64,000 nucleotides of DNA from Bacteroidales bacterium. GTDB lineage: Bacteria > Bacteroidota > Bacteroidia > Bacteroidales > F082. The notes beneath the pieces are model-generated. The model did no database searches. It was not told the origin of the DNA and saw only the letters and a list, made by a program, of their open reading frames with translations. The number at the start of each line of letters is the position of its first letter. Within the stretch, counting starts at the first letter, position 1. Of this stretch, positions 13,482 through 56,841 are shown in pieces. The position numbers and the translations under genes are program-made. The stretch is from positions 191-64,190 of the forward strand of contig JAFSJF010000142.1 of the NCBI GenBank assembly GCA_017439405.1, given 5' to 3'.

Positions 13482-13486
13482 TGGGT

Positions 13487-14047: not shown

Positions 14048-14063
14048 GACACCTTAATCAATA

Positions 14064-15541: not shown

Positions 15542-19906
<4,365 letters not shown>

Positions 19907-34528: not shown

Positions 34529-34583
34529 ATTTTTTTCGAAAAAAGGAACAAAAAAGCCAAGAAGCACTTTCGCATTCCTTGGC
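34529..34583 (-). repeat. Orphan copy of the clpB terminator hairpin (left copy of an island-flanking direct repeat)
   Basis: gccaagaagcactttcgcattccttggc (34556..34583) matches 50631..50658 at 26 of 28 positions. The preceding tttttt(c/g)gaaaaaa tract is also shared. No minus-strand gene ends just upstream of it. Confidence 0.7.
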
Positions 34584-35945: not shown

Positions 35946-36345
35946 TTATCCAACCGCCTCATAAGCAACATACTCCGCAAACCATTTATCAAGAGTTTGT
36001 TCTACTTGTTCCTCCATTTCAGACGTGATGTTCTGACGGATTTTCTGAAAAGCTACGGCGATGGAAGCCGCCTCGTCAAACCAACCAATGATAGGATGCC
36101 GTCTCATCGAAATCAGGTTGATGGGCAGAATGAGATAGGCCAAAGCCGAGTAAACTATCAATTTGGTCACCCCGTGGCGTTTCCTTGCTTTTCAGCACAT
36201 AATACATCAGCAGCACCTGGCGCGTTGTGCCACGACCAAAACGTATTGCGTTGGCCTTGATTTTCTCCCAAAGGCTGGAAAGATTCCATCCATTTGAGCC
36301 TTCATTGTTCGATTGTGTCATACCTTTAAGATTTGAATTTGTCAC
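35946..36345 (-). pseudogene. DUF1232 (YkvA-like) membrane protein split by a 1-nt frameshift in a G4 run
   Basis: ORF 36076..36345 ends ..LLMYYVLKSKETPRG. ORF 35946..36170 continues TKLIVYSALAYLILPINLIS..IIGWFDEA, the DUF1232 core. Removing one G of cacgggg near 36170 fuses them in frame. Confidence 0.6.
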
Positions 36346-36776: not shown

Positions 36777-38006
36777 TTAAATCGGGCTGCAAGCCGTCGT
36801 CACGGCCTTGCAGCCCTTCAAAATATCATAATCTTTATAGTTTCTCCCCACATTCGTTCCCCTGCTGTCCAAAATCACCGAGCCGTTGGAGCCGTCGCAA
36901 TGGTAGCGGTCTGGACCAATGGCCTCAATGCTCGAATAGGATGGTGGCGTGATGATGTTGCCGTTCCTGTCCATCAAACCGTAGCTCCAATCTGCGGTGC
37001 GGTATCTCAGACAGTTGGCCGTGGCTGATTTCAGTATGCCTTCCTCGTCATACTCATCGGTGGAATACTCCATTTTCTCGACCTCATCGAAGTTGCATGG
37101 ATTGATGATGTTGCATTCAAAGTCCAGCACCTGGTTGAGATGGTCGAGGCGGCACACGAAAATGCGGCTATCCTCATGGTGAACGGTGATGTTGTCGTAC
37201 TCTATCGGCAGAAGCATCTGACCTTTCGCATCAAACAGGCCATAGTTCCACTCGCGGTCTTGAACCAACCAAAAGCCTTTCGTGTCGAATGCCATTTCAT
37301 AGTATTCAGGACTGACCACCCAATGGCCTTGCTTGTCGATGAGGCCAATACGGTCGCCGTCGCCCAACATCTGGCACAAACCGTTGTGGAAGCAGTAGTC
37401 ATCGATGCGATTGGTATAAGGGAAATCTTTGTCTATCGCTTTCCGTCCCCTGTGGTCGATGAAATGCAGTGTTCCCTTCTCCATCACGCAGGCTACACCT
37501 TCAGAGAAGATCCAAGCCTTTTCGTATTGTGCTGGAATTGCCACCTCACCCGTGAAACGGTTGAAATAGCCACGCTTGCGTTCTTCGGAGGAAGAGAAGC
37601 AACTCAGGCTGTCGCCATCGGATGACTTGCAGACCCATTGGATGCCTGTTGCCGTGCGCTGTCCAAGGGTCGTGTTGTAAAGGTAGCCCGGATAGTCGTC
37701 GTGATAGATTACGAAGGGGCTGACATACTGGTTGCCATAAGGGTGAAGATAGGTCGGGCTGTTCACCATGCGCCGATATTCACGCCGCTTGCATGCACGG
37801 TCTATACCGTTATAGACATTGATGACAAGAACGATGGAGACTATCAGCGCGACAACCGCCGCACTTGTTGCAAACACACGCCACACGAATCTTCCGAACT
37901 TGCTTTCGGCCTTGTAGCCGAACATCTTGGCCACCCAACGGGCAGCTTGCTTAAGGGCTCCGTCTTTTTTCGGATTGCCCATCTCTGTTTTTTGTTTGTT
38001 GCTCAT
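36777..38006 (-). CDS. WG-repeat (KWG) containing membrane-anchored protein
   Basis: The N-terminal TM segment is VFATSAAVVALIVSIVLVI. It has repeated ..GL(I/F/M)D..G..(V/L).P.EY.. units typical of WG-containing repeats. Confidence 0.65.
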   Translation of the reverse strand: MSNKQKTEMGNPKKDGALKQAARWVAKMFGYKAESKFGRFVWRVFATSAAVVALIVSIVLVINVYNGIDRACKRREYRRMVNSPTYLHPYGNQYVSPFVIYHDDYPGYLYNTTLGQRTATGIQWVCKSSDGDSLSCFSSSEERKRGYFNRFTGEVAIPAQYEKAWIFSEGVACVMEKGTLHFIDHRGRKAIDKDFPYTNRIDDYCFHNGLCQMLGDGDRIGLIDKQGHWVVSPEYYEMAFDTKGFWLVQDREWNYGLFDAKGQMLLPIEYDNITVHHEDSRIFVCRLDHLNQVLDFECNIINPCNFDEVEKMEYSTDEYDEEGILKSATANCLRYRTADWSYGLMDRNGNIITPPSYSSIEAIGPDRYHCDGSNGSVILDSRGTNVGRNYKDYDILKGCKAVTTACSPI

Positions 38007-38262: not shown

Positions 38263-38511
38263 TTACCAATCCGTTACCGACCATGTGCCTCCACACATAA
38301 GGCATTTGTATGTCTTTTTTGCACTTTTATTAAAATCCATGTTTTTTTGTGTCACATACTTACCTGCGGCATAATGAAGTCCACGAACAAGACAACCAAG
38401 CGAGCCAACTGCAATACATAAGGCATCCCCAACCTTTTTTGTTACCGTAGTTTCAGCCTTTTTTAGCACAATCACATTCGTGCTCTTACAACTTTCATTG
38501 ATGCATTCCAT
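38263..38511 (-). CDS. Small split zinc-ribbon protein with central hydrophobic segment
   Basis: 82 aa. It has CINESC at the N-terminus and CLMCG at the C-terminus, flanking VGDALCIAVGSLGCLV. It is the last gene of the operon. Confidence 0.5.
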   Translation of the reverse strand: MECINESCKSTNVIVLKKAETTVTKKVGDALCIAVGSLGCLVRGLHYAAGKYVTQKNMDFNKSAKKTYKCLMCGGTWSVTDW

Positions 38512-38519
38512 AACTTTGA

Positions 38520-39179
38520 TTATTTTGCTTTAATACAATATAATAAAGCGATGTTTTTTGGCCTGTTTTCATTGTCTGCCTTTACTTTTCCATAATTAGA
38601 ACTAACCGCCCCAGATGTACCTGCATCAATCTTCAAACGCATATTATGTGTATGACTGCCTTCTGAAGTCGTTCCTTTGCCTGAATCCGAATAAGAGAAA
38701 TCACTATCGCTATACGACACTTCAAAAACCGTGTATGAACTGAACGCACCATTAGTAATTGCATGAGAATGATAATATACTTTATGGTGGTGTTCTCCTG
38801 AAGAATCGGTTTTCAAGGTTTTATCAATATATACTTTGTGTGAATGCCCTTGTATTGCATCTTCTTGGTAATCTCCCAGCTCCCGTTCTGGATCTACATT
38901 TCCTTCCATATCCCAACCACGAATGAATCTTCCTTGCAAGTCAGGAACGCAGAAAAATCCTAACGTTGTTTCTTCTGGAGTAAAAGTTGTTCCGATAGTA
39001 TCAAACAACTCTTGAAAGAGTTCAATTCTATATTCTTTCCCATCGCATATCAACCATCCCTTTGGAACTTTTTCCATTGCAAATGCTCCAATTGTACCAA
39101 TAGGCACAACTGATTGTTTAAGTTCCTCAATTTCTTGTTTTAACAATTCTAATTGCTGAATTATCTCTGAATGTTCCAT
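38520..39179 (-). CDS. Coiled-coil plus phage tail-collar domain protein (MdpB-like)
   Basis: PIGTIGAFAMEKVPKGWLICDGKEY..LFQELFDTIGTTF..FCVPDLQGRFIRGW matches the tail-collar motif. The N-terminus QQLELLKQEIEELKQ is a coiled coil. Confidence 0.75.
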   Translation of the reverse strand: MEHSEIIQQLELLKQEIEELKQSVVPIGTIGAFAMEKVPKGWLICDGKEYRIELFQELFDTIGTTFTPEETTLGFFCVPDLQGRFIRGWDMEGNVDPERELGDYQEDAIQGHSHKVYIDKTLKTDSSGEHHHKVYYHSHAITNGAFSSYTVFEVSYSDSDFSYSDSGKGTTSEGSHTHNMRLKIDAGTSGAVSSNYGKVKADNENRPKNIALLYCIKAK

Positions 39180-40768
39180 AATAAATGAAATTTTGAATTA
39201 TATACCATTTCTATTTGTGTTTGTGAAGCCATGCCGACCAACACATTGTACAAGACACTCGCTTTGTCTTTTACAGTTTTATTATTGAAACCGAGTCCAA
39301 AAAATTTCTTCGCGTATTCTAATGCGTTTGTATCATTTTTTTTAACCCCTTCTCCCCTAAAATACATCAATGCAACCATGAACAAGCACAATGGATCATT
39401 ATTCAACATTGAAAAGATTTCAAATGCCTTGCGATAAGACTTTCTTCTTCCCAATCCTTCGTACTCCATCAATCCAAGCCAATAATACTGGCTTCCTTCT
39501 GTGAATTGAAACTCCGCTTCATCATACTCTTTATTGTTTAGGCATTGTAGACCAAATTGTAACCTCTGAGCTGGCGTAGGCTTCAATACCTCAAACATCG
39601 CGGCTCCTTTTGCAACTGCATAAAGATAATCGTATGAATCAAAAGAAGGAATTTCAAACATGGCACCCTCTATGGTCTTCTTTCGTACCAGTTTTTTCTT
39701 TATCAATGGGATAACGCTTGATCCTCCAACTAAAAATACCTTTTTGATGTCTTTCCATTCCCAGCCATAATCAGCCAACAGAACATCACAACATTGAATT
39801 GTGTCATCAATAAGAGGTTCTATCATTTCGTTATAATCATCAAGAGAAAGGTGATAATCAAATAATCCAAACTCTTGTTTGTGGTATTCCGTTATTCCAG
39901 TTGATAATTGGTGTTTAGCATCTATGGGAATTTGGGATAGTTTGTCAACATCCCTCATTGCAGCAACATAGTCTCTAATGGAAACAGTTTCATTGCGAAT
40001 CGGGCGGCCATATTCATCCATAGGCATAGACATCAACAAATCCACTACTTCCTGAAAAAAGGGTGTCATTTGAACTAAATCCTTATTAATTAACGCATCA
40101 ATGTAAATACCGCCAATATTCTTCCCACGTGGAATTGCAGAGTCTCTTTCGCCAATGACACGAAGTGTTCCATTATAAAACTGCAATAATGCTGGATCAA
40201 AAGTACCTCCACCTAAATCATAAACAAGAAACTTGTCGTTGTTATTTATGGTTGATTTCTCTTTAATGATGGAATAGGCAGCCGCTTCTGGTTCCTTAAT
40301 TATTTCGATGCCATTATAATCTATTTGGGCCAAATGTGCTGCTGACATCATGGCATTCCATCTATAATCGTTGCAAATTGTGGATGAAGGTATGGTTAGA
40401 ACAACCTTGTTAAACGAATTGACTTTTGCAGTTTGACAAGCCCTATCGTGAACATTTTTCAGAACATAAGCGACATCAGCCACCCATCTACCTGCTTCTG
40501 GGCCTGATAAAAATGGCTTGAATTTATCATGATAGTTTTCAGGGTCTTGATTGCGGCTTCTGACAGCCTTTTTTCCTGTATAATAAACATTATTGGCTTT
40601 ATCAAAAAAAACAGCGGTTGGGCAAGCATATTGACCACCGTATAATTCAAAATCGGTGTTTGCTGCCACACTATCTTCCATGTTAACCAACACTCCCCTT
40701 CCCGTGTCTGTGTCATAAACCGCAGCTTTCGTCCAGATGGTGCCGAAATCTATTCCTAAGTATTTCAT
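39161..40768 (-). CDS. Hsp70-family ATPase (nucleotide-binding domain only) fused to Sel1-type repeats
   Basis: The actin-fold phosphate motifs are MKYLGIDFGTIWTKAAV, VYDLGGGTFD and VFLVGGSSVIPLI. There is no DnaK substrate-binding domain. The C-terminus reads YWLGLMEYEGLGRRKSYRKAFEIF..ALMYFRGEGVKKNDTNALEYAKK (Sel1-like). Confidence 0.8.
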   Translation of the reverse strand: MKYLGIDFGTIWTKAAVYDTDTGRGVLVNMEDSVAANTDFELYGGQYACPTAVFFDKANNVYYTGKKAVRSRNQDPENYHDKFKPFLSGPEAGRWVADVAYVLKNVHDRACQTAKVNSFNKVVLTIPSSTICNDYRWNAMMSAAHLAQIDYNGIEIIKEPEAAAYSIIKEKSTINNNDKFLVYDLGGGTFDPALLQFYNGTLRVIGERDSAIPRGKNIGGIYIDALINKDLVQMTPFFQEVVDLLMSMPMDEYGRPIRNETVSIRDYVAAMRDVDKLSQIPIDAKHQLSTGITEYHKQEFGLFDYHLSLDDYNEMIEPLIDDTIQCCDVLLADYGWEWKDIKKVFLVGGSSVIPLIKKKLVRKKTIEGAMFEIPSFDSYDYLYAVAKGAAMFEVLKPTPAQRLQFGLQCLNNKEYDEAEFQFTEGSQYYWLGLMEYEGLGRRKSYRKAFEIFSMLNNDPLCLFMVALMYFRGEGVKKNDTNALEYAKKFFGLGFNNKTVKDKASVLYNVLVGMASQTQIEMVYNSKFHLLWNIQR

Positions 40769-41472
40769 TTCGTATTTTCCTTATACTGATATATGACAAC
40801 TTCCTGCTCTTTCAGGCATTGGTCTCCTTTTCTAAAGCCTTTGCCCAATGACTCAGCAACGATGTTGTTTTTTGAGAGGTCGTCGGTTTCTTGGATTGTA
40901 ATGATTTTCTGGAACTGGTTGTCAAAAGGCATACCAACACCAGAGACAGGCGTTATTTCAACTATTGACAATAAGTGTTCTATCTGTTGTTCCATGTTTT
41001 GCAGAATGATGTCTGACGTCTGACGTTTATAGCCTGCCGTCTCAAGATAAACAGCAGAAGATATCGCACTTTCAGTCATGGCAGAAATGTTTTTGCCCTG
41101 TTTTTGAATCTCGATTTTGTAGTTGGCTATTGTTTCATTAGCAGTTTGAATCAATTCGTCTTTTCCACAACAATCTTGTTGTAGTGATGTTATAGATTCA
41201 TTAGCTTGGTTCAATTCATTTTCAAGTTGTTCTATTTTCTCTTTGGCTACATCCAATTCTGCTGAACTGGTTGATTGAGGTCGTGGCCGATTGTCTGTTT
41301 GTTCGTTTATATGGTCTTTCCAATAATCAAATAAACCATCAATCAAATCATCAAGACTATCACATCGTTTGCCAACTACATAGGCCTCCAATTTATTCCA
41401 CTTTTCAATCGTTTGTCTGTTTTTCGATGTGGCAATAGTCAGTTTGCCAAGTTCTATCTTTTTCATGATCAC
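40765..41472 (-). CDS. GrpE-like nucleotide-exchange-factor homologue (coiled coil plus beta domain)
   Basis: It has a long coiled coil. The C-terminus is ..VSGVGMPFDNQFQKIITIQET..IVAESLGKGFRKGDQCLKEQEVVIY, which follows the GrpE G..FDP..H.A....V..V...GY......R.A.V.V pattern. 4-nt overlaps on both sides. Confidence 0.6.
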   Translation of the reverse strand: MIMKKIELGKLTIATSKNRQTIEKWNKLEAYVVGKRCDSLDDLIDGLFDYWKDHINEQTDNRPRPQSTSSAELDVAKEKIEQLENELNQANESITSLQQDCCGKDELIQTANETIANYKIEIQKQGKNISAMTESAISSAVYLETAGYKRQTSDIILQNMEQQIEHLLSIVEITPVSGVGMPFDNQFQKIITIQETDDLSKNNIVAESLGKGFRKGDQCLKEQEVVIYQYKENTK

Positions 41473-42965
41473 AAGTTGTTAGAATATGATTGTATTATTC
41501 TTGCTATTTGCAGCGAAACTTCGTTAGCTCGCGTATTTCCAATAAAGCCGAATTTTACAGCGCGTTTTTGCCAAGTTTTGCACAATGAGTCGTATGCGCT
41601 TTGTATTTCGGTTTTAGTTGTGTCCTTTGAAACATTCAGCCTTTCAAAATCTTCGCTACCGTATTCACCAAGTACACATTTCACCTCTTCCCACTCGTCT
41701 TCAGTAAAATAATCCTCCCCATTATAATAATCATTCAATATGTAATACTCAGCATAATGCTGATGCAATTCAAAATCCAATTGATTGATTCTTTGAGTAA
41801 TTCCTTGAATAACTATTCTTACATCATGCCCAATTTCTTTTTGTTGTATAGTTCTAGCACAAACTTTCCTCAACCGAGATAAAACCCTATTGCATTTGTG
41901 AAAATCTGCTCTACCGCCAAAATGGTCTATGACAATTGATTTCAATAACTCGACTCTTGAAAAATCATACAAATACGATTTGTAGGCTTCGGCGGTTGCG
42001 ATAGGGTTTTGTTCGAAATACTCAATTGAGAGACGAACACCGTCTATTGATAGCAATGTGCATAAATGAGAACGAATCTCCTTTGTTTGCCAATCAAACT
42101 TGTCAACAAAAGTATTATAATCTGCCGTAAAGGTTGCAATATTGTTTATTTTCGGAAGTTCCCGAAGCAATTCTATATCGTAGTCATTCAACATGAATGA
42201 TGCTTGGGCGGGTAATGCAGCAATGGGATAAATGTTTAGGAAATAGTACCTAATGTCTGCGTACCTTTCCTTATTGCTTCGGATCTTTTCTTCCGCTTCT
42301 TCAAACTTTTGAACCATCATGTCGGCACGAGTTAAGGCGGCAATAGAATTCAAACCTGAAATCAAACCTGTTGATTCGTGGAAGTCGGCTACCGCAGTAA
42401 TATCTTTGCTTTTAAACTCAGGATATACCAAATAAATAATGGCATCAGGGCGGTTCTCTTCTTTGGTCAATAAATCTCGAGTATGCTGGGAATCAGTACC
42501 CATTAAAGAATCCAACCCAGGAGTATCTATCAAATCAAACACTTCCAATAACGGATGGTTTAAATACACATCAACCCAATGCACACTATCCAGCAATTCC
42601 TTATGAGTACTACTATATCCAACAAATTCAGACAGTTTTTCGATTGAGTATTCCGATTTCACCCCATCTAACATACGAACAACTATTTTTTCTTTCCCGT
42701 CATCAGAGTGTTTTACATGATGAAACCAATTGACATTATATGTCATTACTTCAACAGCAGTAGGTACAATATACCTCCCAAGGAATGCATTTAACAGAGT
42801 GGATTTGCCCGTTTTGATTACGCCAGTAATAGCAACACGAAGTGGACCTTGTAAATCAACAAGTGCCATTTTACATGAATCATACACCGCAGACAATTTG
42901 GGGTTGTTTTGCACTTCGATTTGTAACGATTCAATAAAAGCTTTTATACCTGCTTTTTCATTCAT
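41469..42965 (-). CDS. Bacterial dynamin-like GTPase (soluble partner)
   Basis: G1 is GVIKTGKSTLLNAFLG, G3 is LIDTPGLDS and G4 is LTRADM. A helical stalk follows. No TM paddle is evident. Confidence 0.8.
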   Translation of the reverse strand: MNEKAGIKAFIESLQIEVQNNPKLSAVYDSCKMALVDLQGPLRVAITGVIKTGKSTLLNAFLGRYIVPTAVEVMTYNVNWFHHVKHSDDGKEKIVVRMLDGVKSEYSIEKLSEFVGYSSTHKELLDSVHWVDVYLNHPLLEVFDLIDTPGLDSLMGTDSQHTRDLLTKEENRPDAIIYLVYPEFKSKDITAVADFHESTGLISGLNSIAALTRADMMVQKFEEAEEKIRSNKERYADIRYYFLNIYPIAALPAQASFMLNDYDIELLRELPKINNIATFTADYNTFVDKFDWQTKEIRSHLCTLLSIDGVRLSIEYFEQNPIATAEAYKSYLYDFSRVELLKSIVIDHFGGRADFHKCNRVLSRLRKVCARTIQQKEIGHDVRIVIQGITQRINQLDFELHQHYAEYYILNDYYNGEDYFTEDEWEEVKCVLGEYGSEDFERLNVSKDTTKTEIQSAYDSLCKTWQKRAVKFGFIGNTRANEVSLQIARIIQSYSNNL

Positions 42966-44824
42966 TTTGTCAAATCTTTATGAAGTGTAGCCGCTTGTGC
43001 CAAATACTTGTCACATTCTCGTTTCTTATCACTTATCTGTTTACGCTGCTGACTATCGCTATCAAGACCTCTCAAGACGTTGGCACAAGTCGCACTTTCA
43101 TTATCCAACTCCTTGCTAAAGGTAATCATTAATTGTGTTTCTCCATCAGTAATAATTTCAGCAACTTTTGTTGATATGTTGCTTTGTGAGGTACTTAACT
43201 GAGGAGTAATTGCCTCCATGATTTTTCGTCTTTTCTCTGCTTTTACTCGTTCAGCCCCTTTAATAAAAGCTCTTACACCGCCAATTAATGTTCCAACAGC
43301 ACCTGCAATTGCAGCGCCGATTTCAGCCCCAGCTAAAGTTCCAACACCAGGAAAGAATACCGTACCAACAACAGCTCCAACCACACCGCCGACTACACTT
43401 CCTCCTAATGTACCATACATAAATACATTGCTTAAAAATGCATTTCTGTATATTGAGACCTTATCGATTTTAATATCATCGCTTACTGTATATTTCTCGG
43501 CATCACCTCCTATATTGTCAAGTTGTTCTTGAATAATTGAAAGGCCTGTTTCCTTTTTCAACCATGAATATGTATGGGCAAATTCATCAGAAAGATAATC
43601 TTGTAATTTGTTGGTTTTGTTAATTACAGCACCAGAAACAACACCTCCTAATTGCTCGGGATTATTGATGAATTCATCCATTTGCAGCTTTTCTTCAATG
43701 GAAGATTTCACATCTACAAAATCTGCTTTAATTCGATTATTAGCTCTAGCATTTAACTTTTTAATCTCCCCATTCAGCTTGGTTTTCCAAGCTCCTGATT
43801 CTTTCTTTATTTCGTTTAGGCGTGCTGCAGCATCCTCCAACTGTTTCTTCTTTGCAGCAGCTTTTTCAGGGCTTGAAAATGATTGGAGTAAAGTGTTCAA
43901 GATGTTACCGTAATCACGAAGCGCATTCAACAGACATTCTACTTGTCTCTTTGCCATTATCACTTCAATGTTATTCTCTATTGTCTCCAACAAAGGGAAA
44001 AACTTGTCAAATCCAGTAGTAGAATAGTCAGTAACGACACCTGCTTTGTGTTTTTTTAGATTTTCATTCGACACCATACAGAATTGCAATTCTCCTTCTT
44101 TCCAATCTTTTACTTCAGAAAGATGTTCTTTGTTTTTTGTAAGAACAACAGATGGATTTCCTTGATCCATGTGAGTCAAGACATGTATGACACTCTGACA
44201 CTTTGAACACTCCAACAACTGTTTGACGTAAGATATTTCAGATTCTGTCAGTTCACTTTCCCCGCTACCAACCAAAAAAATAACATCGGCTAATGGAGCC
44301 ATTGAAAAAGTTGTGGCAGCATGGAGCGGATTAAGAGAGCCAAGACCAGGAGTATCGATAAGTACCAACCCGCCTTTCAAATGTTCATTTGGCAACTCAA
44401 CAACTATCAGGCGGACATTTTTTTTGTTGTTTTTGTTTTTTTTCTCAGATACATAGTTATCAATACTAGTTCTATCAATAATATCTGGTCGGGGTTCTGC
44501 CGATTCACCATCTTTGGCGGCATAATACACTGTAATTCTTTCTTCTGTTCCATAACGCACGATGGTATTTGTGTTGGTACAGACTCCTCCATCCACCGTG
44601 CAAATGTTTTCACCAAGAATACTATTAATTAAAGAAGACTTCCCCGTTTTCACTTCTCCAGAAAAAAGAGCATAATACTCCTTTTTGTTGTATATTGAGG
44701 TCATCTTCTCCAATACATCCAAAATCCCAGTTCCCTTTGCCAAAGCATCATTGGCTTCCATTTGCCTTGAGAACTCTATAACTTTAGTGGTGAGTTCGTT
44801 AACTCGTTTACGGATGTTTTCCAT
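42962..44824 (-). CDS. Bacterial dynamin-like GTPase with Gly-rich membrane paddle
   Basis: G1 is GEVKTGKSSLINSILG, G3 is LIDTPGLGS and G4 is LTHMD. The hydrophobic hairpin is GTLGGSVVGGVVGAVVGTVFFPGVGTLAGAEIGAAIAGAVGTLIGGV. Confidence 0.82.
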   Translation of the reverse strand: MENIRKRVNELTTKVIEFSRQMEANDALAKGTGILDVLEKMTSIYNKKEYYALFSGEVKTGKSSLINSILGENICTVDGGVCTNTNTIVRYGTEERITVYYAAKDGESAEPRPDIIDRTSIDNYVSEKKNKNNKKNVRLIVVELPNEHLKGGLVLIDTPGLGSLNPLHAATTFSMAPLADVIFLVGSGESELTESEISYVKQLLECSKCQSVIHVLTHMDQGNPSVVLTKNKEHLSEVKDWKEGELQFCMVSNENLKKHKAGVVTDYSTTGFDKFFPLLETIENNIEVIMAKRQVECLLNALRDYGNILNTLLQSFSSPEKAAAKKKQLEDAAARLNEIKKESGAWKTKLNGEIKKLNARANNRIKADFVDVKSSIEEKLQMDEFINNPEQLGGVVSGAVINKTNKLQDYLSDEFAHTYSWLKKETGLSIIQEQLDNIGGDAEKYTVSDDIKIDKVSIYRNAFLSNVFMYGTLGGSVVGGVVGAVVGTVFFPGVGTLAGAEIGAAIAGAVGTLIGGVRAFIKGAERVKAEKRRKIMEAITPQLSTSQSNISTKVAEIITDGETQLMITFSKELDNESATCANVLRGLDSDSQQRKQISDKKRECDKYLAQAATLHKDLTK

Positions 44825-44835
44825 GATTTGTAGAT

Positions 44836-46140
44836 TTAGAATATGTCAAAACTATTGTCTTCTATTGTGAAACTATCATCATTGTCATCTTCAAAGTCAG
44901 GATCATCTTCTTCAAAACTCATTTCTTCGTGGGAATCCAACGAATCATCTTCATCAAAAAACGAATCCTCAAAATCATCTTCTCCATCGAAGTTGTATTC
45001 CCGGTCATCCAATAATTCATTGGCAATGCTATCATTTTCCATATCCATCCAATTATTCAATATCTCATTCACATCAAAAGTCAAATGTTCATAATCGTGG
45101 ATATTGTTCGCTGCAAGAAATGAATCCAAAGAAACTCCTTGTATTGTTCCAAGAGCAATATGCTGCATGTTAAAGTCTGGAGTGGGTATGTCTGTTGATA
45201 CCATAAAACATTGAGAGTCTTTCCATGCATCAATGAATTGTTCGAGTGGGTAGGGCTTAGCGACATCACCTGTGCCAGGGTCTTTCAATACAACATAAGA
45301 ATGATTTGGATCTGACAAGTCGATGCCGGCAACAATTAGAGCGTGGTCAGGAGTACCTCCCAAGAAAAAATCCCTTAAAGTTTCTCTTATTGGTCCATGA
45401 TGTAGTTCTCCTGAATCAACCCCAACGATGATTTGATGGCCTTGCGCAAGCTCGGCAACTAAATTACCCACATTAGCTCCTACTACTGATGTTGTGGGAA
45501 TATTGTAGTACTCTAATAGATTTCCGATACAATTCATTGGCGTACCCATACCACCATCTACATGATACCATCCATTGTTTTCAGCAATTTCCATAAGCAT
45601 TTCTTGGGGAACATCTATGCCAAAACGTTCCAAAACAAGTTGTTGCGATTTGACTGCGCAAGTGTCTTGATACCATTGATAAACTTCTCCCGATACATCA
45701 ATTAACGGGTCTTCCCCAAAGTGAGCATTTGCATAATAGATTTCTCTTTCCATATTTATTAGTTTTTTTTCATTGTTTCTTTCATTTTCTATAGACCCTG
45801 TTTCCTCCTCAAAACTATCACTTTCAAGAGAAAAAATTTCATCAATGAAGCCGCTTTGCTCAATAGGCGAATACAAATCGAGTGTGGGAAGTTCAATAGA
45901 CGGCAATTCCATCTCAAAAGGAACAGGCTCATTATCAATCAAATCCAAATCAAAATCGGCCTCAATATTGCTGTCAGTCTCCAAAACCGCCTGCATCTCA
46001 GAATCATTGTCGATGAAAGCCTTCATCTGCCGTATTTCCTCATCCGGCAAGTTGCAGTCGAGATACGCGGCATATTTCTCTATGCTGATATGTGGCAAGT
46101 GCTTAACCATAACATTCCTCCTTTCTGAGCGTCTTTTCAA
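44836..46140 (-). CDS. Acidic-tailed protein with central papain-fold (C39-like) cysteine-peptidase-type domain, in anti-sigma position
   Basis: The motif order is Cys (YQDTCAVKSQQLVLERFG), then His (TPDHALIVAGID), then VVLKDPGTG. There is no TM segment. The C-terminal ~60 aa are almost entirely D/E/F/S. The alternative start MVKHLPH at 46110 overlaps the sigma stop as ATGGTTAA. Confidence 0.5.
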   Translation of the reverse strand: MKRRSERRNVMVKHLPHISIEKYAAYLDCNLPDEEIRQMKAFIDNDSEMQAVLETDSNIEADFDLDLIDNEPVPFEMELPSIELPTLDLYSPIEQSGFIDEIFSLESDSFEEETGSIENERNNEKKLINMEREIYYANAHFGEDPLIDVSGEVYQWYQDTCAVKSQQLVLERFGIDVPQEMLMEIAENNGWYHVDGGMGTPMNCIGNLLEYYNIPTTSVVGANVGNLVAELAQGHQIIVGVDSGELHHGPIRETLRDFFLGGTPDHALIVAGIDLSDPNHSYVVLKDPGTGDVAKPYPLEQFIDAWKDSQCFMVSTDIPTPDFNMQHIALGTIQGVSLDSFLAANNIHDYEHLTFDVNEILNNWMDMENDSIANELLDDREYNFDGEDDFEDSFFDEDDSLDSHEEMSFEEDDPDFEDDNDDSFTIEDNSFDIF

Positions 46141-46723
46141 ACATCTCCTTCGCCAATCTATGTTTGTTATAATAATTGTCCATAGTCATGCCAAGCGCCT
46201 CAGCCGTTTCCCTGTCAGTCCTCAATTCAACATGACGCAGACGGATGATTTGGCTATAGCGTTTGTTTTTCATCAGACCAAGAATCACCTCCACATCCTC
46301 GCGTTGGAACATACTGAGATCTTCTTCTATAGACGGCTCTTCGGGCCAAATTCTATCACTTGGCTTGCCTTTTTCTGGGTTTTTCGGTGAAATCGTTTCA
46401 GTTTCAGGCTTTTTGCTTTTCACCTCAAACTGGCTGTAACAGTAGAACTTGCAGACCACCTTCAGCCATTGCGTCAGGGTGCTTTCGCCATGGTAACCCA
46501 TCAGGCGGCACCGTCCCGTCCTTCGGCTTGGGGTCATGATGAGCACATAGATTTCATTGATGAACTCAATGCAGCTCTCGCAATCGGTATAGTAGCCGTC
46601 AAAATATCGCTTGAAAAGCGGATAGCAATGCTGGTACAGGTATCGCTTCGTGGTGGCTTCATCCCTACGTAAGATGGCCTGGGCTATTTTCAAGTCCTCG
46701 GTAAAGATTCGTATGTCGGGCAT
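46103..46723 (-). CDS. Sigma-70 family (ECF-like) RNA polymerase sigma factor
   Basis: The region 2-like part is ..YLYQHCYPLFKRYF..FINEIYVLIM..STLTQWLKVVCKFY. The region 4-like HTH is ..RYSQIIRLRHVELRTDRETAEALGMTMDNYYNKHRLAKEMFEKTL. Confidence 0.65.
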   Translation of the reverse strand: MPDIRIFTEDLKIAQAILRRDEATTKRYLYQHCYPLFKRYFDGYYTDCESCIEFINEIYVLIMTPSRRTGRCRLMGYHGESTLTQWLKVVCKFYCYSQFEVKSKKPETETISPKNPEKGKPSDRIWPEEPSIEEDLSMFQREDVEVILGLMKNKRYSQIIRLRHVELRTDRETAEALGMTMDNYYNKHRLAKEMFEKTLRKEECYG

Positions 46724-47098
46724 AGGTCAAGGTCGCGCTTCTCGCGGTTCGTTTTTTTGCCGTCAGAGGCTCCCATGGCCAGCCGATTGTATTGAAGTCT
46801 AAGAGCATAAAGAAAAGCGTGGGAGCAAGAACTCTTGCCTATCCCGGTTGCTCGGGCTCTCGCATTGCCCACCTATCGAGGATAAGCAATGCTCGCAGCC
46901 CACGCTGGATCATATATACACAGATTGTTGGTATTATACAAACACAACACCAACATCGGATATACGAATCCCATGAACGCGAATCATTGCTTTACCGTGC
47001 GATAGGTTAGGAATTTGCGAGATTCAAGCAACCCGCAGATAAAACGCCAATTCGACGCTATTCTTATATGTCTGTCACCATCTTATTAAAGAGGTATG
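46724..47098 (-). promoter_or_regulatory. ~375-nt GC-rich untranslated leader of the sigma operon (candidate structured cis-regulatory RNA)
   Basis: No credible ORF is present. Nested helices are visible: GCGUGGG...CCCACGC followed by UUUUCUUU, enclosing GGCUGCGAGCAUUGC/GCAAUGCGAGAGCC and GCAAGAGUUCUUGC. Further hairpins are GUUGGU..ACCAAC and CGCGAGAAGCGCG. Confidence 0.45.
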
Positions 47099-47104
47099 AC
47101 GGTG

Positions 47105-47112
47105 CAAATTTA
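47105..47112 (-). promoter_or_regulatory. -7 box TAaaTTTG, likely promoter of the sigma/dynamin/Hsp70 operon
   Basis: The reverse complement of caaattta is TAAATTTG. It lies between the upstream cassette terminator and the leader. Confidence 0.5.
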
Positions 47113-47169
47113 CATTATTAATCCATCGGTACATTATTCTCTTTGAAAAAAAACACTTCATCGGATCCA

Positions 47170-47207
47170 CAAAAAAGCCTTGACACAAAAATGATTGTAT
47201 CAAGGCT
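47170..47207 (-). terminator. Intrinsic terminator of the SIR2 cassette
   Basis: The minus-strand RNA has AGCCUUGAUAC-loop-GUGUCAAGGCU (11 bp including one G-U pair) followed by UUUUUGU. It lies 34 nt after the 110-aa gene stop. Confidence 0.7.
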
Positions 47208-47240
47208 TCCATAGTGCAACCAAAGAGTTTTGATTGTTGA

Positions 47241-47573
47241 TTACTTTCCTGTCGGATTAGGCTCTTTTATCCAAACACTAACGCGATACTTTTGCTCTTT
47301 CTCCATTTGTTTTTCCGATGCCACCCAGCGGCACTCAAGAAGGTCTTCATTATACGAAAGTATTGCAAAGATAAATTTTTGCTCCAATTCATTCAATTTT
47401 AGGCTTCCAAACACATCGTCATCCTTATAGACATAGGCTTTTTTGTTATTTTCAACATAACAAATTCTTAGCTTATCATCACGTTTAATCTCTGTGCAAA
47501 AACATGGATAATCATCCACGTAAAAAACTCCTAAATGCCTGTTGATTTTTTTAATGATATCTTCTTTGTTCAT
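47241..47573 (-). CDS. Hypothetical 110-aa protein, third gene of the SIR2 cassette
   Basis: The ORF lies 20 nt downstream of the ATPase gene. I see no recognisable motif. Confidence 0.5.
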   Translation of the reverse strand: MNKEDIIKKINRHLGVFYVDDYPCFCTEIKRDDKLRICYVENNKKAYVYKDDDVFGSLKLNELEQKFIFAILSYNEDLLECRWVASEKQMEKEQKYRVSVWIKEPNPTGK

Positions 47574-47593: not shown

Positions 47594-49378
47594 TTATTGA
47601 TTGCCCACTAATTGTTTGATGGTTTCATAGTGCGGTATGTTGTTGTTTGTACACACGAAAGAAAGTCTAACGAATACTTCTCGGTCATTCTCGTCAAATC
47701 CCAAGCACATGGAAGCATTTTTGCATATATTAGCAATTACTGGGATGAGGAGTCGCTCTCTTTCCATCAGCGGGAAAAGATTGATATTCGCAAAGTCATC
47801 AAAAACAATATGAAGATTTTTGTGTTTGGATAGCCTTTTCCATCTATACACATATTCCTTAATAATTGAAGTATACTCTTCTGCCCAGATGCAGCCCAAA
47901 CTTGTTTCCCAATAGTGAATATTTCGTAAAGCGAATTCCGACAAGTCATATTTCTGAATTATTCTTCTAAAATGCTGTTCTGTCTTGCCCAATAGAAAAA
48001 CAGCAATAGTTGTATCATTTTGTTGTGCCTGTCTCGATATTTCATCGAACAATCTGTCATACCCCTGTTTGTCGATCAAATTGATACTATGCGTTATGTT
48101 TTGGGCATTATATGAAACAGTTTTTTCGCTATGGTCTGACATCACATCATTAATAACATTGGCAAACCTGATTGGCTTGTCCTCCATCTTTTGTGAGCAA
48201 TTATATCGAAATCTATTAAGCAATGATTGAGGGTATCGCAAATTACCTTGTTCAAGTCGAAGGCCTGCGTTGTCGGATGAAAAACGTCTGGTAAGCAGTG
48301 AGTGCATACTAGGATATATCTTCACACTTAAATCTCTCAATTTGCGGTATTTATGCCATCCATGAACATGCTGTTGAAGGTCGCTCTTTATAATTTGAAG
48401 CTCATAATATGTGTATTCGGCTGCCTTGTCTGTGTTGCTTCGCATATTAATGATAATGTCAGCGTTTAGATGAAGCGTTCTTCCTCGCTTGTCAAGTACC
48501 AATATGGATACAGCCGATGTCTTTCTCAGTTTTAAAATAAGGTCAGTGAACGGTAATCTTTCAAGTTCGTCATCTCTGAAAGCTGTAAAACCCTCTATTA
48601 CATAAGAACTCCATACAAATCCCACTTTATCATCGCACGAGGTCGTTGCAAGGTTTTCGGCCTTATCTGTTATCTCTTTTTGGAAGTCTTTAAATTGGCG
48701 AATGGCAATAGATGTGTAACTATTTGAAACGAAATCATCTTTGTTTTGGTCAAAAATATCTTTTTTGTCAATGGCATCATCTTTCAAATAAGCCAAAAGG
48801 TTGTCGGAGTTGCTAGTATCTCCGTATGTCCAGTGCATAGATTGCGACCGGTCACTATAATTGATAATTTCATGACGTAGAAGTTTACATATAGGACACG
48901 AGACTATCTCAGAGGCATCACAATCTTGTTCGAATGATGGGCAAGTACTTACAAGACCATTCAACTTCTCTCGCATATCGGGGAAATATTTGCAAAGTTT
49001 GCACCTATGAGTTGCATCTGCCTTGATGTTTGGCAGTTTTATATCGTCAATCATTTTACCCACCTCAAGGCCTATGTATTTTTTCATCAACTCGCTTTCG
49101 CGCTGGTTCAATGTTCGATATTTTGGAGACATTTGATAATCCTTACCATACAATCTGGCGAAATAATCGTCAACTCCACGCATAATCTGCATAGCCAGAT
49201 CGGATTTACTGATGCCACGATCTCCATATATCACAATGCATATTCCATCCCTGCTCTTGTTTTCTCCTCGCTTGCCAGGCAAACGCAATCCTCCATAAAA
49301 CAGGTCGTCAAACCCCGAGACCCCTGTGATTATTTTGTCAATGTCTAATATACTATTGTTTTCCATATTACTTTTCAT
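47594..49378 (-). CDS. KaiC/RadA-like double RecA-fold ATPase with inserted Cys-rich zinc-ribbon module
   Basis: ITGVSGFDDLFYGGLRLPG..CIVIYGDRGISKSDLAMQI is a KaiC-type N-terminus with a Walker A-like GDRGISKS. The insert carries CKLC..C..C..CPIC. The KaiC-like strand YELQIIKSDLQQHVHGWHKY is present. The second half (IAVFLLGKTE.., HIVFDDF..) looks like a degenerate second RecA domain. Confidence 0.6.
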   Translation of the reverse strand: MKSNMENNSILDIDKIITGVSGFDDLFYGGLRLPGKRGENKSRDGICIVIYGDRGISKSDLAMQIMRGVDDYFARLYGKDYQMSPKYRTLNQRESELMKKYIGLEVGKMIDDIKLPNIKADATHRCKLCKYFPDMREKLNGLVSTCPSFEQDCDASEIVSCPICKLLRHEIINYSDRSQSMHWTYGDTSNSDNLLAYLKDDAIDKKDIFDQNKDDFVSNSYTSIAIRQFKDFQKEITDKAENLATTSCDDKVGFVWSSYVIEGFTAFRDDELERLPFTDLILKLRKTSAVSILVLDKRGRTLHLNADIIINMRSNTDKAAEYTYYELQIIKSDLQQHVHGWHKYRKLRDLSVKIYPSMHSLLTRRFSSDNAGLRLEQGNLRYPQSLLNRFRYNCSQKMEDKPIRFANVINDVMSDHSEKTVSYNAQNITHSINLIDKQGYDRLFDEISRQAQQNDTTIAVFLLGKTEQHFRRIIQKYDLSEFALRNIHYWETSLGCIWAEEYTSIIKEYVYRWKRLSKHKNLHIVFDDFANINLFPLMERERLLIPVIANICKNASMCLGFDENDREVFVRLSFVCTNNNIPHYETIKQLVGNQ

Positions 49379-50384
49379 TAGCTGTTAATTCCTCTAATAT
49401 TTGATGATAGAGGTCCTGATATCCCTCTGCATCATTGACAATGCATAAATGCTGAGACTCATAATATTCAGTTTTCAATCTTGACAGGAGTTCGCCATCT
49501 GGATCATCGCGTCCGCCTCTAAGCCAATAAACTCGTTCACTATTGTTTTCAAGTTTGGCATGACGTAAAAGACGTGCGGTTGTCATGTCATCTAATGAGA
49601 GGCCAAGTATGATACATGTGTGATGTGTTAGAAAGTGCAGTTGTGTCGCATTCTGCCAAGAATACACGTCTTTGCTAAGTTGGTAAAATTCTTCGTCTGA
49701 CAATACAATATAATTGCTCTCTTTACTAGGCAGCATTTCAGAAGGCGGAGGAATGTAACCATGAACATGATAGATAAAAAAACAATTCTCATTGTAAGGT
49801 TCTTCTTTCCATCCTGCGTATACATCAAGGGGAATCATCTTTCTTCTTGTTTCACTATATGACATTCCTCTATTATCCAACAATATCTTAATGGCCTCAG
49901 AAAGAAAGTTGTTATAATTCTGAGTAATTACTGTACGGATTGATGTTTGCCTAAGAATGAAATCGGCAATAGAGAATAAGGATCCAAATGGAACTTTTTT
50001 TAGGTTTTCAACGGTCGGATTGTCTTTATACTGCTTAAACTTATCATAGGATTTAGTAAGGATTCTCCTGTTGCACCTCGTATAAAGCCAATTGCGAATA
50101 ATCGGAATATAGCTGTTTCCCAATCTATTTTTTAAAATAGCAGCTTTCAGAGGAGCATTTGCCAAATTGTTCAAAGTGTTTTTTTCCTCATTATTAATAC
50201 AAGCAGCCTCTGTTAACTCTTCTAATAGATATTTCCACGATAATGTTTTACCTCTTAATCCATCAAATTCATGTCCTTCTGGATACACACTAGAAAAGTC
50301 AGTGCCTGCACCAAGGAACAAAGCCATCGCTTTGTTATCTCTAATATCCTTTTTCAGTTCTTCTATATTCTGACTCGGGAACAT
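49368..50384 (-). CDS. SIR2_2-family (ThsA/DSR-type) putative NADase
   Basis: The motifs are ALFLGAGTDFS (GAG), VITQNYNNF (TxNYD-like), FIYHVHGY (catalytic His), IVLSDEEFY and IILGLSLDD. The start MFPSQN is at 50384. The first 86 codons of ORF 49368..50642 cover the promoter region and are rejected. Confidence 0.7.
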   Translation of the reverse strand: MFPSQNIEELKKDIRDNKAMALFLGAGTDFSSVYPEGHEFDGLRGKTLSWKYLLEELTEAACINNEEKNTLNNLANAPLKAAILKNRLGNSYIPIIRNWLYTRCNRRILTKSYDKFKQYKDNPTVENLKKVPFGSLFSIADFILRQTSIRTVITQNYNNFLSEAIKILLDNRGMSYSETRRKMIPLDVYAGWKEEPYNENCFFIYHVHGYIPPPSEMLPSKESNYIVLSDEEFYQLSKDVYSWQNATQLHFLTHHTCIILGLSLDDMTTARLLRHAKLENNSERVYWLRGGRDDPDGELLSRLKTEYYESQHLCIVNDAEGYQDLYHQILEELTANEK

Positions 50385-50442
50385 TATGCCTATCTGTCTA
50401 TTCCTATGAATTTTGAAATAAAAATGTACAATTTTTATGCTG

Positions 50443-50450
50443 CAAATATA
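50443..50450 (-). promoter_or_regulatory. -7 box TAtaTTTG for the SIR2 cassette
   Basis: The reverse complement of caaatata is TATATTTG, 59 nt upstream of ATG 50384. Confidence 0.45.
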
Positions 50451-50611
50451 ATGAATAATTGATTTAGCTCTACAAAAAAAACTTATTTTCAAAATTACTA
50501 CTACAAATGATACAAAATACAATCGTAGCAGGGTAGCATAAATAACGAAAATGAGCAACTGAACAACTCCTAACTGATAACTCCTATAATAAATACGGCA
50601 AACTTGCAGAA

Positions 50612-50658
50612 TTTTTTGGAAAAAAATAAAGCCAAGAAGCACTTTTGCGTTCCTTGGC
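50612..50658 (-). terminator. clpB intrinsic terminator (right copy of the island-flanking repeat)
   Basis: The minus-strand RNA has GCCAAGGAACGC-AAAA-GUGCUUCUUGGC followed by UUUAUUUUUUU. It lies 26 nt after the clpB stop. Confidence 0.65.
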
Positions 50659-53272: not shown

Positions 53273-53367
53273 ATTTCGTTTTTCCTTTCTGATTTTCGCA
53301 TTTGAAACGCCCGGACTCCATCAAAATCCTAACCAATTCCGCTTTGGCGAAATTTTGGCTTAATTTA

Positions 53368-53422
53368 TGACAAAATGACAGAGAATTAAAGGTTTAAGCA
53401 TTAGTTTCGTGACAAAATGACA
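53368..53422 (-). promoter_or_regulatory. Two copies of tgacaaaatgaca 42 nt apart upstream of clpB (candidate operator)
   Basis: Exact 13-nt direct repeat at 53368..53380 and 53410..53422, 96-150 nt upstream of the clpB ATG. Confidence 0.3.
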
Positions 53423-53492
53423 ACAAACAACCATATCCATCTGTTATTTCATATCAACGATGGATTGTATGCTGTCTGACTCTCAAATATAC

Positions 53493-54404: not shown

Positions 54405-54431
54405 CTATGTTCATCTTTGCAAAAATAGCGC

Positions 54432-54550
54432 TTTTGTCGAATCCCCCAAAATTTTTTCGCCCGTTTTGTCGAATCCCCCAAAATTTTTTCGCCCGTTTTG
54501 TCAAATCCCCCAAATTTTTTTCGCCCGTTTTGTCAAATCCCCCAAAATTT
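54432..54550. repeat. 3.7 x 32-nt intergenic tandem repeat (ttttgtcgaatcccccaaaattttttcgcccg)
   Basis: The copies are at 54432-54463, 54464-54495, 54496-54527 (3 substitutions) and 54528-54550 (partial). The + ORF 54407..54616 is merely its translation. Confidence 0.9.
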
Positions 54551-54555
54551 CCCTT

Positions 54556-56837: not shown

Positions 56838-56841
56838 GGCG

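Follow-up and report, generated by a model that had tools for sequence, protein, structure and literature searches.

What could two dynamin-like GTPases be doing in one gene array with an Hsp70 that ends at its nucleotide-binding domain (NBD) and a GrpE-like protein? The question is raised by a locus in a 64,000-nucleotide stretch of a Bacteroidales metagenome-assembled genome (MAG) (GCA_017439405.1, contig JAFSJF010000142.1, positions 191 to 64,190), hereafter the window, to which all coordinates refer. Eight co-directional open reading frames (ORFs) lie tightly packed on the minus strand at 38263-46723, and the NCBI annotation of the same MAG likewise shows eight consecutive proteins (MBQ6772094-101). 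They form one tight operon-like array that encodes, from its upstream end, a divergent sigma factor, a C39-like peptidase, two dynamin-like proteins (DLP1 and DLP2), the GrpE-like protein, the Hsp70, a tail-fibre-like Collar protein and a small Cys-rich protein. The core of the system is made up of DLP1 (membrane-inserting), DLP2 (soluble), the NBD-only Hsp70 and the GrpE-like protein, usually joined by the cytoplasmic C39-like peptidase. We propose, at a confidence somewhat short of even, that it is a stress or defence module directed at the membrane, with an Hsp70-NBD/GrpE switch that acts over the dynamin pair, a proposal in which we infer the interactions, the trigger and the role.

An earlier sequence-only reading of the locus had described an operon of nine genes. 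The 517 nt upstream of the sigma gene (46724-47240), where a ninth gene was sought, contain no credible ORF, and the count is therefore eight. Most of the layout proposed at that time agrees with the ORF list: all genes of the array are on the minus strand, 4-nt overlaps are seen at 42962-42965, 41469-41472 and 40765-40768, the Hsp70 and Collar genes overlap by 19 nt, and the sigma and C39-like genes overlap by 38 nt from a TTG start or by 8 nt from the ATG at 46110. The overlap between DLP2 and the GrpE-like gene requires a GTG start; the NCBI model, a GrpE of 233 aa, has no overlap. The terminator claimed at the bottom of the array was also found: an intrinsic terminator with an 8-bp stem and a T-run after it closes the array at 38202-38182 (minus strand).

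Both dynamin-like proteins are well supported by profile matches. DLP1 (42962-44824, minus strand, 620 aa) matches Dynamin_N with E 9e-23 and DLP2 (41469-42965, minus strand, 498 aa) with E 2e-13. DLP1 carries a glycine-zipper hydrophobic paddle at aa ~462-520 (43265-43441, minus strand), with a hydropathy peak at 473-491 and matches to DUF6861 and to glycine-zipper families, and this segment has no counterpart in DLP2, so that the pair consists of one paddle-bearing and one soluble member, as had been read from the sequence. The paddle is also found in the DLP1 of cyanobacteria and Clostridia. The motifs G1 (GxxxxGKS/T), G3 (DxxG) and G4 are kept in both proteins; the G4 of DLP1 is THMD in the window versus TKxD in most relatives, and G1, G3 and G4 of DLP2 are invariant in 87 relatives. 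The nearest solved relatives of DLP1 are IniA (1e-18), the Nostoc bacterial dynamin-like protein (BDLP) (3e-13) and Cj-DLP1, and the nearest to DLP2 is Cj-DLP2 (5owv_C, 4e-8). When compared with the PADLOC models, DLP1 matched LeoA (6e-19) and LeoBC (1e-18), and DLP2 matched only LeoA, with E 0.005. From the G motifs, the paddle and the nearest solved relatives, the two proteins look like a classical heterotypic BDLP pair, for which an action on membranes is predicted. A phage origin was considered and ruled out, since no relatives of DLP2 were found in 2.9 million viral contigs.

The two genes that follow encode the chaperone-related part of the core. The GrpE-like nucleotide-exchange factor (40765-41472, minus strand, 235 aa or 233 aa in the NCBI model) matches Pfam GrpE with E 7e-8 and 32.7 bits (cutoff 25.8), over profile positions 10-163 of 165, and its gene lies between DLP2 and Hsp70 in all the Bacteroidota loci that have this region on the contig. 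The Hsp70 (39161-40768, minus strand, 535 aa) is made up of an NBD (aa 1-~397; Pfam HSP70 E 7e-24) and a Sel1-like helical C-terminus (aa ~405-535). The HSP70 match spans only profile positions 115-377 of 599, the Sel1 match (32.3 bits) is above its cutoff, and both the substrate-binding domain and the interdomain linker are absent, in agreement with the initial prediction of a GrpE-like factor next to an Hsp70 NBD with Sel1 repeats. The ATPase residues D7, K84, E159 and D184 and the GGGTFD motif are invariant. The window thus has two features in common with the canonical DnaK-DnaJ-GrpE system, an NBD with its catalytic ATPase residues and an exchange factor of the GrpE family, but the canonical system combines the NBD with a linker, a substrate-binding domain and a J-protein, whereas the window Hsp70 lacks the linker and the substrate-binding domain and no J-protein was found among the window proteins. 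The close Hsp70-Sel1 family is rare: of 1.84 billion proteins searched, 36 representatives reach E <= 1e-30. The profile searches that had been suggested as a check were run, and the dynamin, Hsp70, GrpE, Collar and Sel1 assignments all came out above the Pfam cutoff or with strong E-values.

This gene set is found well beyond the source genome. The order DLP1-DLP2-GrpE-Hsp70(NBD)-Collar occurs in at least 10 independent Bacteroidota loci (in our numbering L003, L004, L005-7, L009, L090, L091, L092/93 and L102, the last cut by the contig end at DLP1), and part of it can be seen on cut contigs (L001/2, L101 and L103). The Bacteroidota Hsp70 relatives found in this order are 31-56% identical, and ahead of most of the sets there is a C39-like gene, and often the sigma gene as well; in another locus (L010, from the Muribaculaceae MF13079) the core is accompanied by sigma and C39-like genes and there is no Collar. 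DLP1-DLP2-GrpE-Hsp70(NBD), with or without the C39-like gene, was also found in Gloeothece PCC 7424 (L008), an unclassified MAG (L025), a cyanobacterial MAG (L011), Clostridia (L058), Bacillota (L015), Bryobacterales (L016, Acidobacteriota) and an Actinomycetes MAG (L014), and a partial set in two other cyanobacterial MAGs (L012 and L013). In Gloeothece citriformis PCC 7424 the genes are two Hsp70(NBD) genes, one of them with TPR, a C39-like gene, two further genes, the paddle-bearing DLP1, DLP2 and GrpE. In Chloroflexota and most other Actinomycetota loci, the dynamin-like pair is accompanied by an NBD-only Hsp70.

When 185,579 species genomes were scanned with a DLP2 profile, 80 loci were retrieved, in nearly all of which DLP1 (detected with locally built profiles) adjoins DLP2. 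Canonical DnaKs were separated by means of a substrate-binding-domain profile, which was made from canonical DnaKs and does not match the adjacent Hsp70s. An NBD-only Hsp70 was found within 1 kb of a DLP gene in 30 of the 80 loci and within 10 kb in 14 more; 25 had no detected Hsp70, several of them on short contigs; and 11, corresponding to Mycobacteriales IniA/IniC-like pairs, had only a canonical dnaK-grpE and were set aside. Clear GrpE-like and/or C39-like genes were present in Muribaculaceae, cyanobacteria, Clostridia, Bacillota, Bryobacterales and the Actinomycetes MAG. The linked Hsp70s end at the NBD in nine of the ten sampled with Pfam, the exception being the contig-truncated ORF of the Bacillota locus (L015), whose match runs to profile position 488. 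What follows the NBD varies among loci: Sel1, eleven TPRs, WD40, a DUF5050 propeller, a YNCE/Vgb-type propeller or a second actin fold, with GUN4, FHA, FGE-sulfatase and WG repeats as further variants in cyanobacterial relatives. These neighbourhoods, spread over many genomes and several phyla, confirm the hard-wired linkage of the dynamin pair with the GrpE-like protein and the NBD-only Hsp70. A canonical DnaK as the linked Hsp70 holds only for the Mycobacteriales loci (Nocardia and relatives; L066, L073, L075, L077, L081, L082, L084, L085, L088 and L089), where the IniA/IniC-like pair lies 2-6 kb from the canonical dnaK-grpE. This looser synteny may or may not have anything to do with the tight linkage to NBD-only Hsp70s.

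Among the loci, the components of the core diverge in step with one another, and the identities of the upstream genes are discordant: in one locus (L099) the sigma factor is 76% identical to that of the window versus 25% for the DLPs, and in another (L091) the C39-like protein is 78% identical versus 22% for the sigma factor. Therefore, the core seems to be inherited as a unit, with a regulatory head that can be swapped. A set of related loci (L098-100) is mixed in content: the 76%-identical sigma factor heads a cassette in which an anti-sigma-C39 fusion is joined by a gene like DLP1, an Hsp70 NBD that carries a zinc ribbon, two DO-GTPases (PF19975/PF19993), a transmembrane (TM) protein, a gene like DLP2 and one with a weak likeness to GrpE (recognized by eye only).

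At the head of the array is a protein of 206 aa (46103-46723, minus strand) with no Pfam match. It matches TIGR02937 with E 2e-7 and 30.8 bits, under the cutoff of 42.9, and the profile of its family retrieves SigW from PDB with E 2e-3; Sigma70_r4_2 is found in its homologues. In the AlphaFold2 (AF2) model, which like the other models was built with database homologues, the predicted local distance difference test (pLDDT) is 80, and almost all of the top ~30 Foldseek matches in PDB are extracytoplasmic function (ECF) sigma factors; the sigma-4 domain alone gives template modelling (TM) scores of 0.6-0.8 with a root mean square deviation of 1.5-1.7 A. The predicted fold confirms the presence of sigma-2 and sigma-4 domains, and hence a divergent ECF-type sigma factor, upholding the sigma-70-family assignment made at the outset from sequence that scores below the family cutoffs.

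The next gene (44836-46140, minus strand, 434 aa; alternative ATG at 46110) encodes a soluble fusion of an anti-sigma-like N-terminal motif, an acidic linker, a C39-like cysteine peptidase and an acidic tail, with no TM segment predicted. The motif (aa 17-45, 46006-46092, minus strand, IEKYAAYLDCNLPDEE) contains the AAYLDGNL that opens the protein, its general form being L(A/G)AY(L/I)(D/E)GNL..(E/S)E. Elsewhere it recurs on a separate small gene beside sigma, between the sigma and C39-like genes in three loci (L004, L005 and L010) and directly after sigma in another (L095). Five of the nine motif sequences match Pfam zf-HC2 weakly (best E 0.0015), and a sequence search of the motif in PDB gave no anti-sigma match. 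The placing of an acidic protein in the anti-sigma position is in line with these separate genes and zf-HC2 matches.

The peptidase domain (45181-45693, minus strand) matches Peptidase_C39_2 (PF13529) with E 7e-4, under the cutoff, and PF13529 is carried by its homologues; Bacteroides caecimuris, too, has an annotated member of the C39 family. The residues C161, H266 and D287, together with the oxyanion Q166, are invariant in 11 of 11 homologues. A sequence search of PDB found nothing useful, and with the AF2 model (pTM, the predicted TM score, 0.77) the best Foldseek match is 3ERV, a C39-like peptidase; the model also resembles the PEP domain of ComA (TM 0.79), the peptidase domain of PCAT1 and papain-like toxins. 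Predicted fold and Cys/His/Asp triad thus agree on the papain fold that had been suggested. Beside this we observed in a Clostridia MAG (L058, 4765-7140) a C39-like protein with four PG_binding_1 domains and neither signal peptide nor TM segment; this domain content hints at a peptidase component that might detect fragments of peptidoglycan in the cytoplasm.

The acidic C-terminal tail of the window protein (44839-45018, minus strand) is 50% D+E and ends in ...EDNSFDIF. Acidic tails with hydrophobic last residues were also observed in the anti-sigma-like or C39-like proteins of six other loci (L004, L005, L010, L090, L091 and L095), the tail ends being, with that of the window, ...EDNSFDIF, ...DIDIDL, ...IMETDL, ...LNDLDL and ...YDDISF. 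By analogy, such tails recall the EEVD and SSB-type C-terminal peptides that are bound by TPR-like domains, and they could be a ligand of the Sel1/TPR domain of the Hsp70.

The sigma family comprises 193 clusters and is not confined to the dynamin/Hsp70 cassette. In a conjugative element with relaxase and type IV coupling protein (L095-97, ~1-17200), a sigma gene heads an array in which it is followed by an acidic protein of 136 aa with the same N-terminal motif, and which also contains a C39-like gene along with Ser/Thr kinases, PP2C phosphatases and FHA proteins. The array looks like one more uncharacterised cassette under the same regulatory head. The sigma/anti-sigma-motif/C39 head is thus a separately shuffled Bacteroidales regulatory module. 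Of the claim that the system has a private sigma factor, what remains is that the sigma gene heads the array here; the head module is shuffled and also heads unrelated cassettes.

Next to the Hsp70 gene is the gene of a 219-aa protein (38520-39179, minus strand) that consists of a coiled coil and a T4 gp12-like short-tail-fibre tip with Collar (E 2e-14) and a His-rich head. Its PDB matches are the short tail fibre 9cuy (3e-9) and 1ocy (T4 gp12), which is aligned end to end; H112, H114 and H130 show no variation, and H132, H176 and H178 almost none. The Collar and His-containing head are common to T4 gp12-like fibres, but the tail and baseplate context of the latter is missing: no other tail, baseplate or tailocin genes were found in the island of the window or in homologous cassettes. 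The Collar gene is restricted to Bacteroidota cassettes, where it is present in one to three tandem copies, and among the best 80 Collar relatives in metagenomes only the closest five are in a cassette context, which makes them a cassette-specific subclade. The tail-collar identity put forward at first is therefore upheld, but as a Bacteroidota-only accessory and not as a hard-wired member of the system. The terminal gene (38263-38511, minus strand) encodes an 82-aa Cys-rich protein, Cx4C...CxxC around a hydrophobic middle, with no family match. Other loci end with unrelated small, often acidic proteins and have no homologue at that position, so the zinc-ribbon protein, which had been counted as part of the system, was rejected as a conserved member and is lineage specific.

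The cassette lies in DNA of deviating composition, with a GC content of 0.37-0.39 across ~38-50.6 kb versus ~0.52 in the flanks, and a SIR2_2 gene at 49368-50642, which matches the initial description of an AT-rich island beside SIR2. In relatives, PDC-S01 and an IetA-like ATPase adjoin the cassette (L001 and L009), one locus has an integrase and insertion sequence (IS) elements (L003) and another an IS insertion (L091). A single RelA/GATase_7 chromosomal site is occupied by the Collar-type cassette in one genome (L009) and by the DO-GTPase-bearing variant in another (L098). The cassette is horizontally acquired, and its neighbourhood is defence flavoured, with SIR2, type I restriction-modification (RM)/Fic and a Panacea antitoxin in the window and PDC-S01 and the IetA-like ATPase at relatives.

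How new is this arrangement? Full-text literature searches turned up no paper that names the system, and the PADLOC (2023) matches were Leo-type, for DLP1 only. The C. jejuni DLP1/DLP2, DynA, Nostoc BDLP and IniA/IniC are likewise Dynamin_N GTPases; the window pair is in tandem, translationally coupled and equipped with intact G motifs and one paddle, its identity to these proteins is low and confined to the GTPase domain, and no dedicated NBD-only Hsp70, GrpE-like, C39-like, Collar or private sigma gene has been described for their operons. Eleos, or "Dynamins" (LeoA + LeoBC), resembles the window in its dynamin-like pair and defence-type neighbourhood, and DLP1 matches both models at ~1e-19, but Eleos has none of the Hsp70, GrpE, peptidase, Collar or sigma components.

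Two published linkages come closest. In a "chaperone group" of cyanobacterial BDLPs, a neighbouring gene codes for a protein with a DnaK domain (Jilly et al. 2018, PMC5827413), and the Gloeothece locus is homologous to the window cassette in DLP1, DLP2, GrpE, Hsp70 and C39; that work records only the adjacency, and not the GrpE-like and C39-like partners, the Hsp70 truncation, the variable repeats or the Bacteroidota version with sigma and Collar. A subset of the DO-GTPase/GAP1-N2 conflict systems includes HSP70, GrpE and HSP70 without the peptide-binding domain (Kaur, Burroughs, Iyer & Aravind 2020, PMC7159879). These systems and the window both pair membrane-proximal GTPases with GrpE, NBD-only HSP70 and variable components. 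However, the window GTPases belong to the dynamin family, with no PF19975/PF19993 match at E <= 0.1 and no N-terminal zinc ribbons, the window has none of the GAP1 (GAP1-N/M/C), FNIII-DnaJ or tubulin components, and the DO-GTPase systems have been described mainly in Actinobacteria and Firmicutes (PMC7159879). Since both the DO-GTPase and GAP1 are missing, the window cassette is not a member of the DO-GTPase family, although the two kinds of components are combined in nature, as the mixed loci L098-100 indicate. The novelty claimed in the sequence-only reading therefore stands in that neither a paper nor a PADLOC model names the system, and falls short in that the dynamin-Hsp70 linkage had been noted and an analogous GTPase/HSP70/GrpE theme described. 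The multi-phylum core has no assigned function, and the precedents for its linkage are partial.

More distant parallels can be drawn. The HSP70B-CDJ2-CGE1 chaperones remodel VIPP1 oligomers, and clathrin is uncoated by Hsc70/auxilin after scission by dynamin. In both cases an Hsp70 and an exchange factor are devoted to a membrane-remodelling polymer, a functional analogy that implies no common descent; those Hsp70s are full length and J-protein dependent, whereas the window has no substrate-binding domain, linker or J-domain gene. ECF sigma/anti-sigma pairs with regulated proteolysis likewise show a two-domain ECF-like sigma followed by a protein with an anti-sigma-like motif, but the segment of the window has no zinc ligands and no TM segment, and is fused to (elsewhere adjoins) a cytoplasmic papain-fold peptidase. 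We did not find an arrangement of sigma factor, anti-sigma-like segment and papain-fold peptidase described in the literature.

In the mechanism that we propose, the Hsp70 NBD would act as an ATP/ADP switch or adaptor rather than as a foldase. Its variable C-terminal repeat domain, Sel1 in this case, would bind a partner or trigger, and the GrpE-like protein would reset the switch via ADP release. The switch would control the assembly or disassembly of DLP1-DLP2 on the cytoplasmic membrane, and the GTP-driven remodelling could seal damage or, in an abortive-infection reading, breach the membrane. In Bacteroidales, a private ECF-type sigma factor might be held by the anti-sigma-like peptide fused to or encoded beside the C39-like peptidase, and cleavage of this peptide would free sigma and induce the operon. 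The gp12-like protein may add a Bacteroidota-specific recognition, as a specificity, sensor or decoy element. A defence role is favoured by the rarity of the cassette, its horizontal acquisition and its grammar of constant NTPases and variable repeats, and by the link to DO-GTPases, the exchange of cassettes at one site and the SIR2, RM, Fic, Panacea, PDC-S01 and IetA-like neighbours.

Several observations weigh against this proposal. There is no J-domain partner, J-domain/DnaJ having no match in the window proteins or in the precomputed Pfam lists of homologous cassettes, and NBD-only Hsp70s have no characterised mechanism (PMC13580251). None of the PADLOC models matches the Hsp70, GrpE-like, Collar or C39 proteins. 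On the regulatory side, the putative anti-sigma assignment is based on a short motif, its gene position and faint zf-HC2 matches, of which the window copy gives none; outside Bacteroidales the C39-like protein occurs without any sigma factor, so its role must extend beyond anti-sigma cleavage; and no promoter motif beyond shuffled controls is shared upstream of eight sigma genes, which leaves autoregulation unsupported. The Collar protein has no signal peptide, which makes a lipopolysaccharide-binding or surface role hard to picture. Finally, some cassettes (for instance L092) lie among ordinary metabolic genes.

Three other explanations have to be weighed. The array could be a housekeeping-type operon for envelope or membrane repair, in which an ECF pair senses damage, the dynamins reseal the membrane in the manner of IniA/IniC or DynA, the Hsp70/GrpE recycles the oligomers, and the defence-like neighbours are incidental to the genomic-island location. 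The ECF sigma/anti-sigma logic is typical of envelope stress, the isoniazid-induced IniA is the closest solved relative of DLP1, the Mycobacteriales pairs lie close to the canonical dnaK-grpE and some loci are embedded among core genes, all of which speaks for repair. It is nevertheless unlikely in our view: the distribution is patchy, rare and horizontally acquired, as judged from the 36 close representatives and the AT-rich island, and the variable Hsp70 C-termini, the one to three tandem Collar copies per locus, the relative linked to DO-GTPases and the different cassettes at one chromosomal hotspot are features of an accessory conflict module and not of housekeeping repair.

C39 peptidases classically process double-glycine leader peptides, and vesicle release has been proposed for LeoABC, so an export, vesiculation or bacteriocin-like system can also be imagined, with cargo processed by C39, vesicles released by the dynamins and Collar as receptor-binding cargo. 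Although the peptidase domains of ComA and PCAT1 match the C39 model structurally, DLP1 resembles LeoA/LeoBC and the Collar protein is a receptor-binding tail-fibre tip in one to three gene copies, we regard this explanation as quite improbable. C39 exporters have an ABC partner and a double-glycine-leader substrate, and no gene for either was found in the operon; Collar has no signal peptide, double-glycine leader or type IX secretion system (T9SS) C-terminal domain and no accompanying tail or tailocin genes, and it is absent outside Bacteroidota while the core persists; and the C39-like protein is a cytoplasmic fusion with an anti-sigma-like motif. It is scarcely credible that independent genes came together by chance on the island, or that an ordinary dnaK-grpE operon has dynamin genes beside it by accident. 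The Hsp70s near the dynamins of Nocardia and other Mycobacteriales are indeed canonical DnaK-GrpE a few kb away, but many unrelated genomes, from several phyla, have the genes in the same order and again with overlapping junctions, all the adjacent Hsp70s tested lack the substrate-binding domain except the contig-truncated ORF of L015, and the core components co-diverge. The neighbourhood data thus refute chance, which the sequence-only reading had named as what would overturn it.

Within the proposed stress or defence module, a broader version, which we consider on the doubtful side, is that of an unnamed multi-phylum machine in which the Hsp70 ATPase serves as a STAND-like switch with swappable sensors and gates the dynamin pair, as an immune/abortive-infection or a damage-response device. 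B. subtilis DynA gives protection from phage and pore-formers. If the proposal is true, the module would be a bacterial counterpart of the eukaryotic Hsp70-dynamin partnership and the first functional context for many orphan "DnaK derivative" proteins, and if the Hsp70 NBD switches dynamin assembly it would represent a new mode of action of bacterial Hsp70. The conserved operon also brings dynamins, along with the Bacteroidales of gut and rumen, into the GTPase/HSP70/GrpE theme known from predicted conflict systems. Bacterial DLPs and NBD-only derivatives are both widespread with largely unknown roles, and their joint operon provides a testable hypothesis for both, in a compact cassette of eight genes. 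NBD-only "DnaK derivatives" have been described as functionally unexplored in a 2026 review that calls for their functional analysis (PMC13580251).

The control signals of the array are less distinctive than its genes. Between the 110-aa gene upstream and the sigma gene there is a long leader or intergenic region (46724-47104, minus strand) with no ORF >60 aa and no conservation in related loci. Rfam families and tRNAs were looked for in the window and none was found, which means that the leader does not correspond to any known RNA element. A candidate Bacteroidetes-type -7 box (TAAATTTG, 47105-47112, minus strand) lies ~380 nt upstream of the sigma ATG. A single TAnnTTTG box had been claimed for the locus; there are five minus-strand matches in the interval (40198, 42107, 44847, 45810 and 47105), and the one at 47105-47112 is the only intergenic one. 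The whole window has 49 matches versus 32.5 expected, a modest enrichment, and the 47105 box is statistically not distinctive and not kept in relatives. We also observed that the match at 44847-44854 (minus strand) is 23 nt upstream of the DLP1 start codon, inside the last part of the C39-like gene; this match might serve as an internal promoter of the five-gene core, which is present without any sigma factor in L003.

Around the cassette, an imperfect direct repeat of ~50 nt (37-nt core, 89% identical), at 34529-34583 and 50608-50658, brackets a segment of 16 kb with a Panacea/MqsA-like antitoxin, a DUF1232 pseudogene, a WG-repeat protein, the dynamin cassette and the SIR2 operon. The repeat consists of the ClpB terminator hairpin and an A/T run and looks like the boundary of an inserted island; there is no integrase within the segment, and the seven contigs with an identical ClpB all (7/7) carry the same island, with no empty site among them. 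Beyond ClpB, a second AT-rich stretch at ~53300-57000 (also seen in L094, 5304-8525) contains a type I RM methylase and specificity subunit with an inserted Fic gene, so ClpB is flanked by accessory or defence DNA on both sides.

Upstream of the cassette, the SIR2_2 gene forms a co-directional minus-strand array with the genes of a 594-aa protein (47594-49378) and a 110-aa protein (47241-47573). The 594-aa protein has no family or PDB match, and neither it nor SIR2 matches a PADLOC model; the array joins the cassette only in close relatives of the source MAG and may be an undescribed SIR2-based system. On the other side, a TM-anchored WG_beta_rep protein is encoded 0.2-4 kb downstream of Collar in the window (36777-38006, minus strand) and in two relatives (L001, 7578-8642, and L009, 16381-17448). 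The three proteins share ~30% identity over 290 aa, fusions of Hsp70 NBD and WG_beta_rep exist in cyanobacteria (P0069, P0113 and P0119), and the WG_beta_rep protein may be a loosely linked accessory. The DUF1232 (YkvA-like) gene (35946-36345, minus strand) is split by a frameshift into two overlapping ORFs, whereas L092/L093 have an intact homologue a short way downstream of the cassette.

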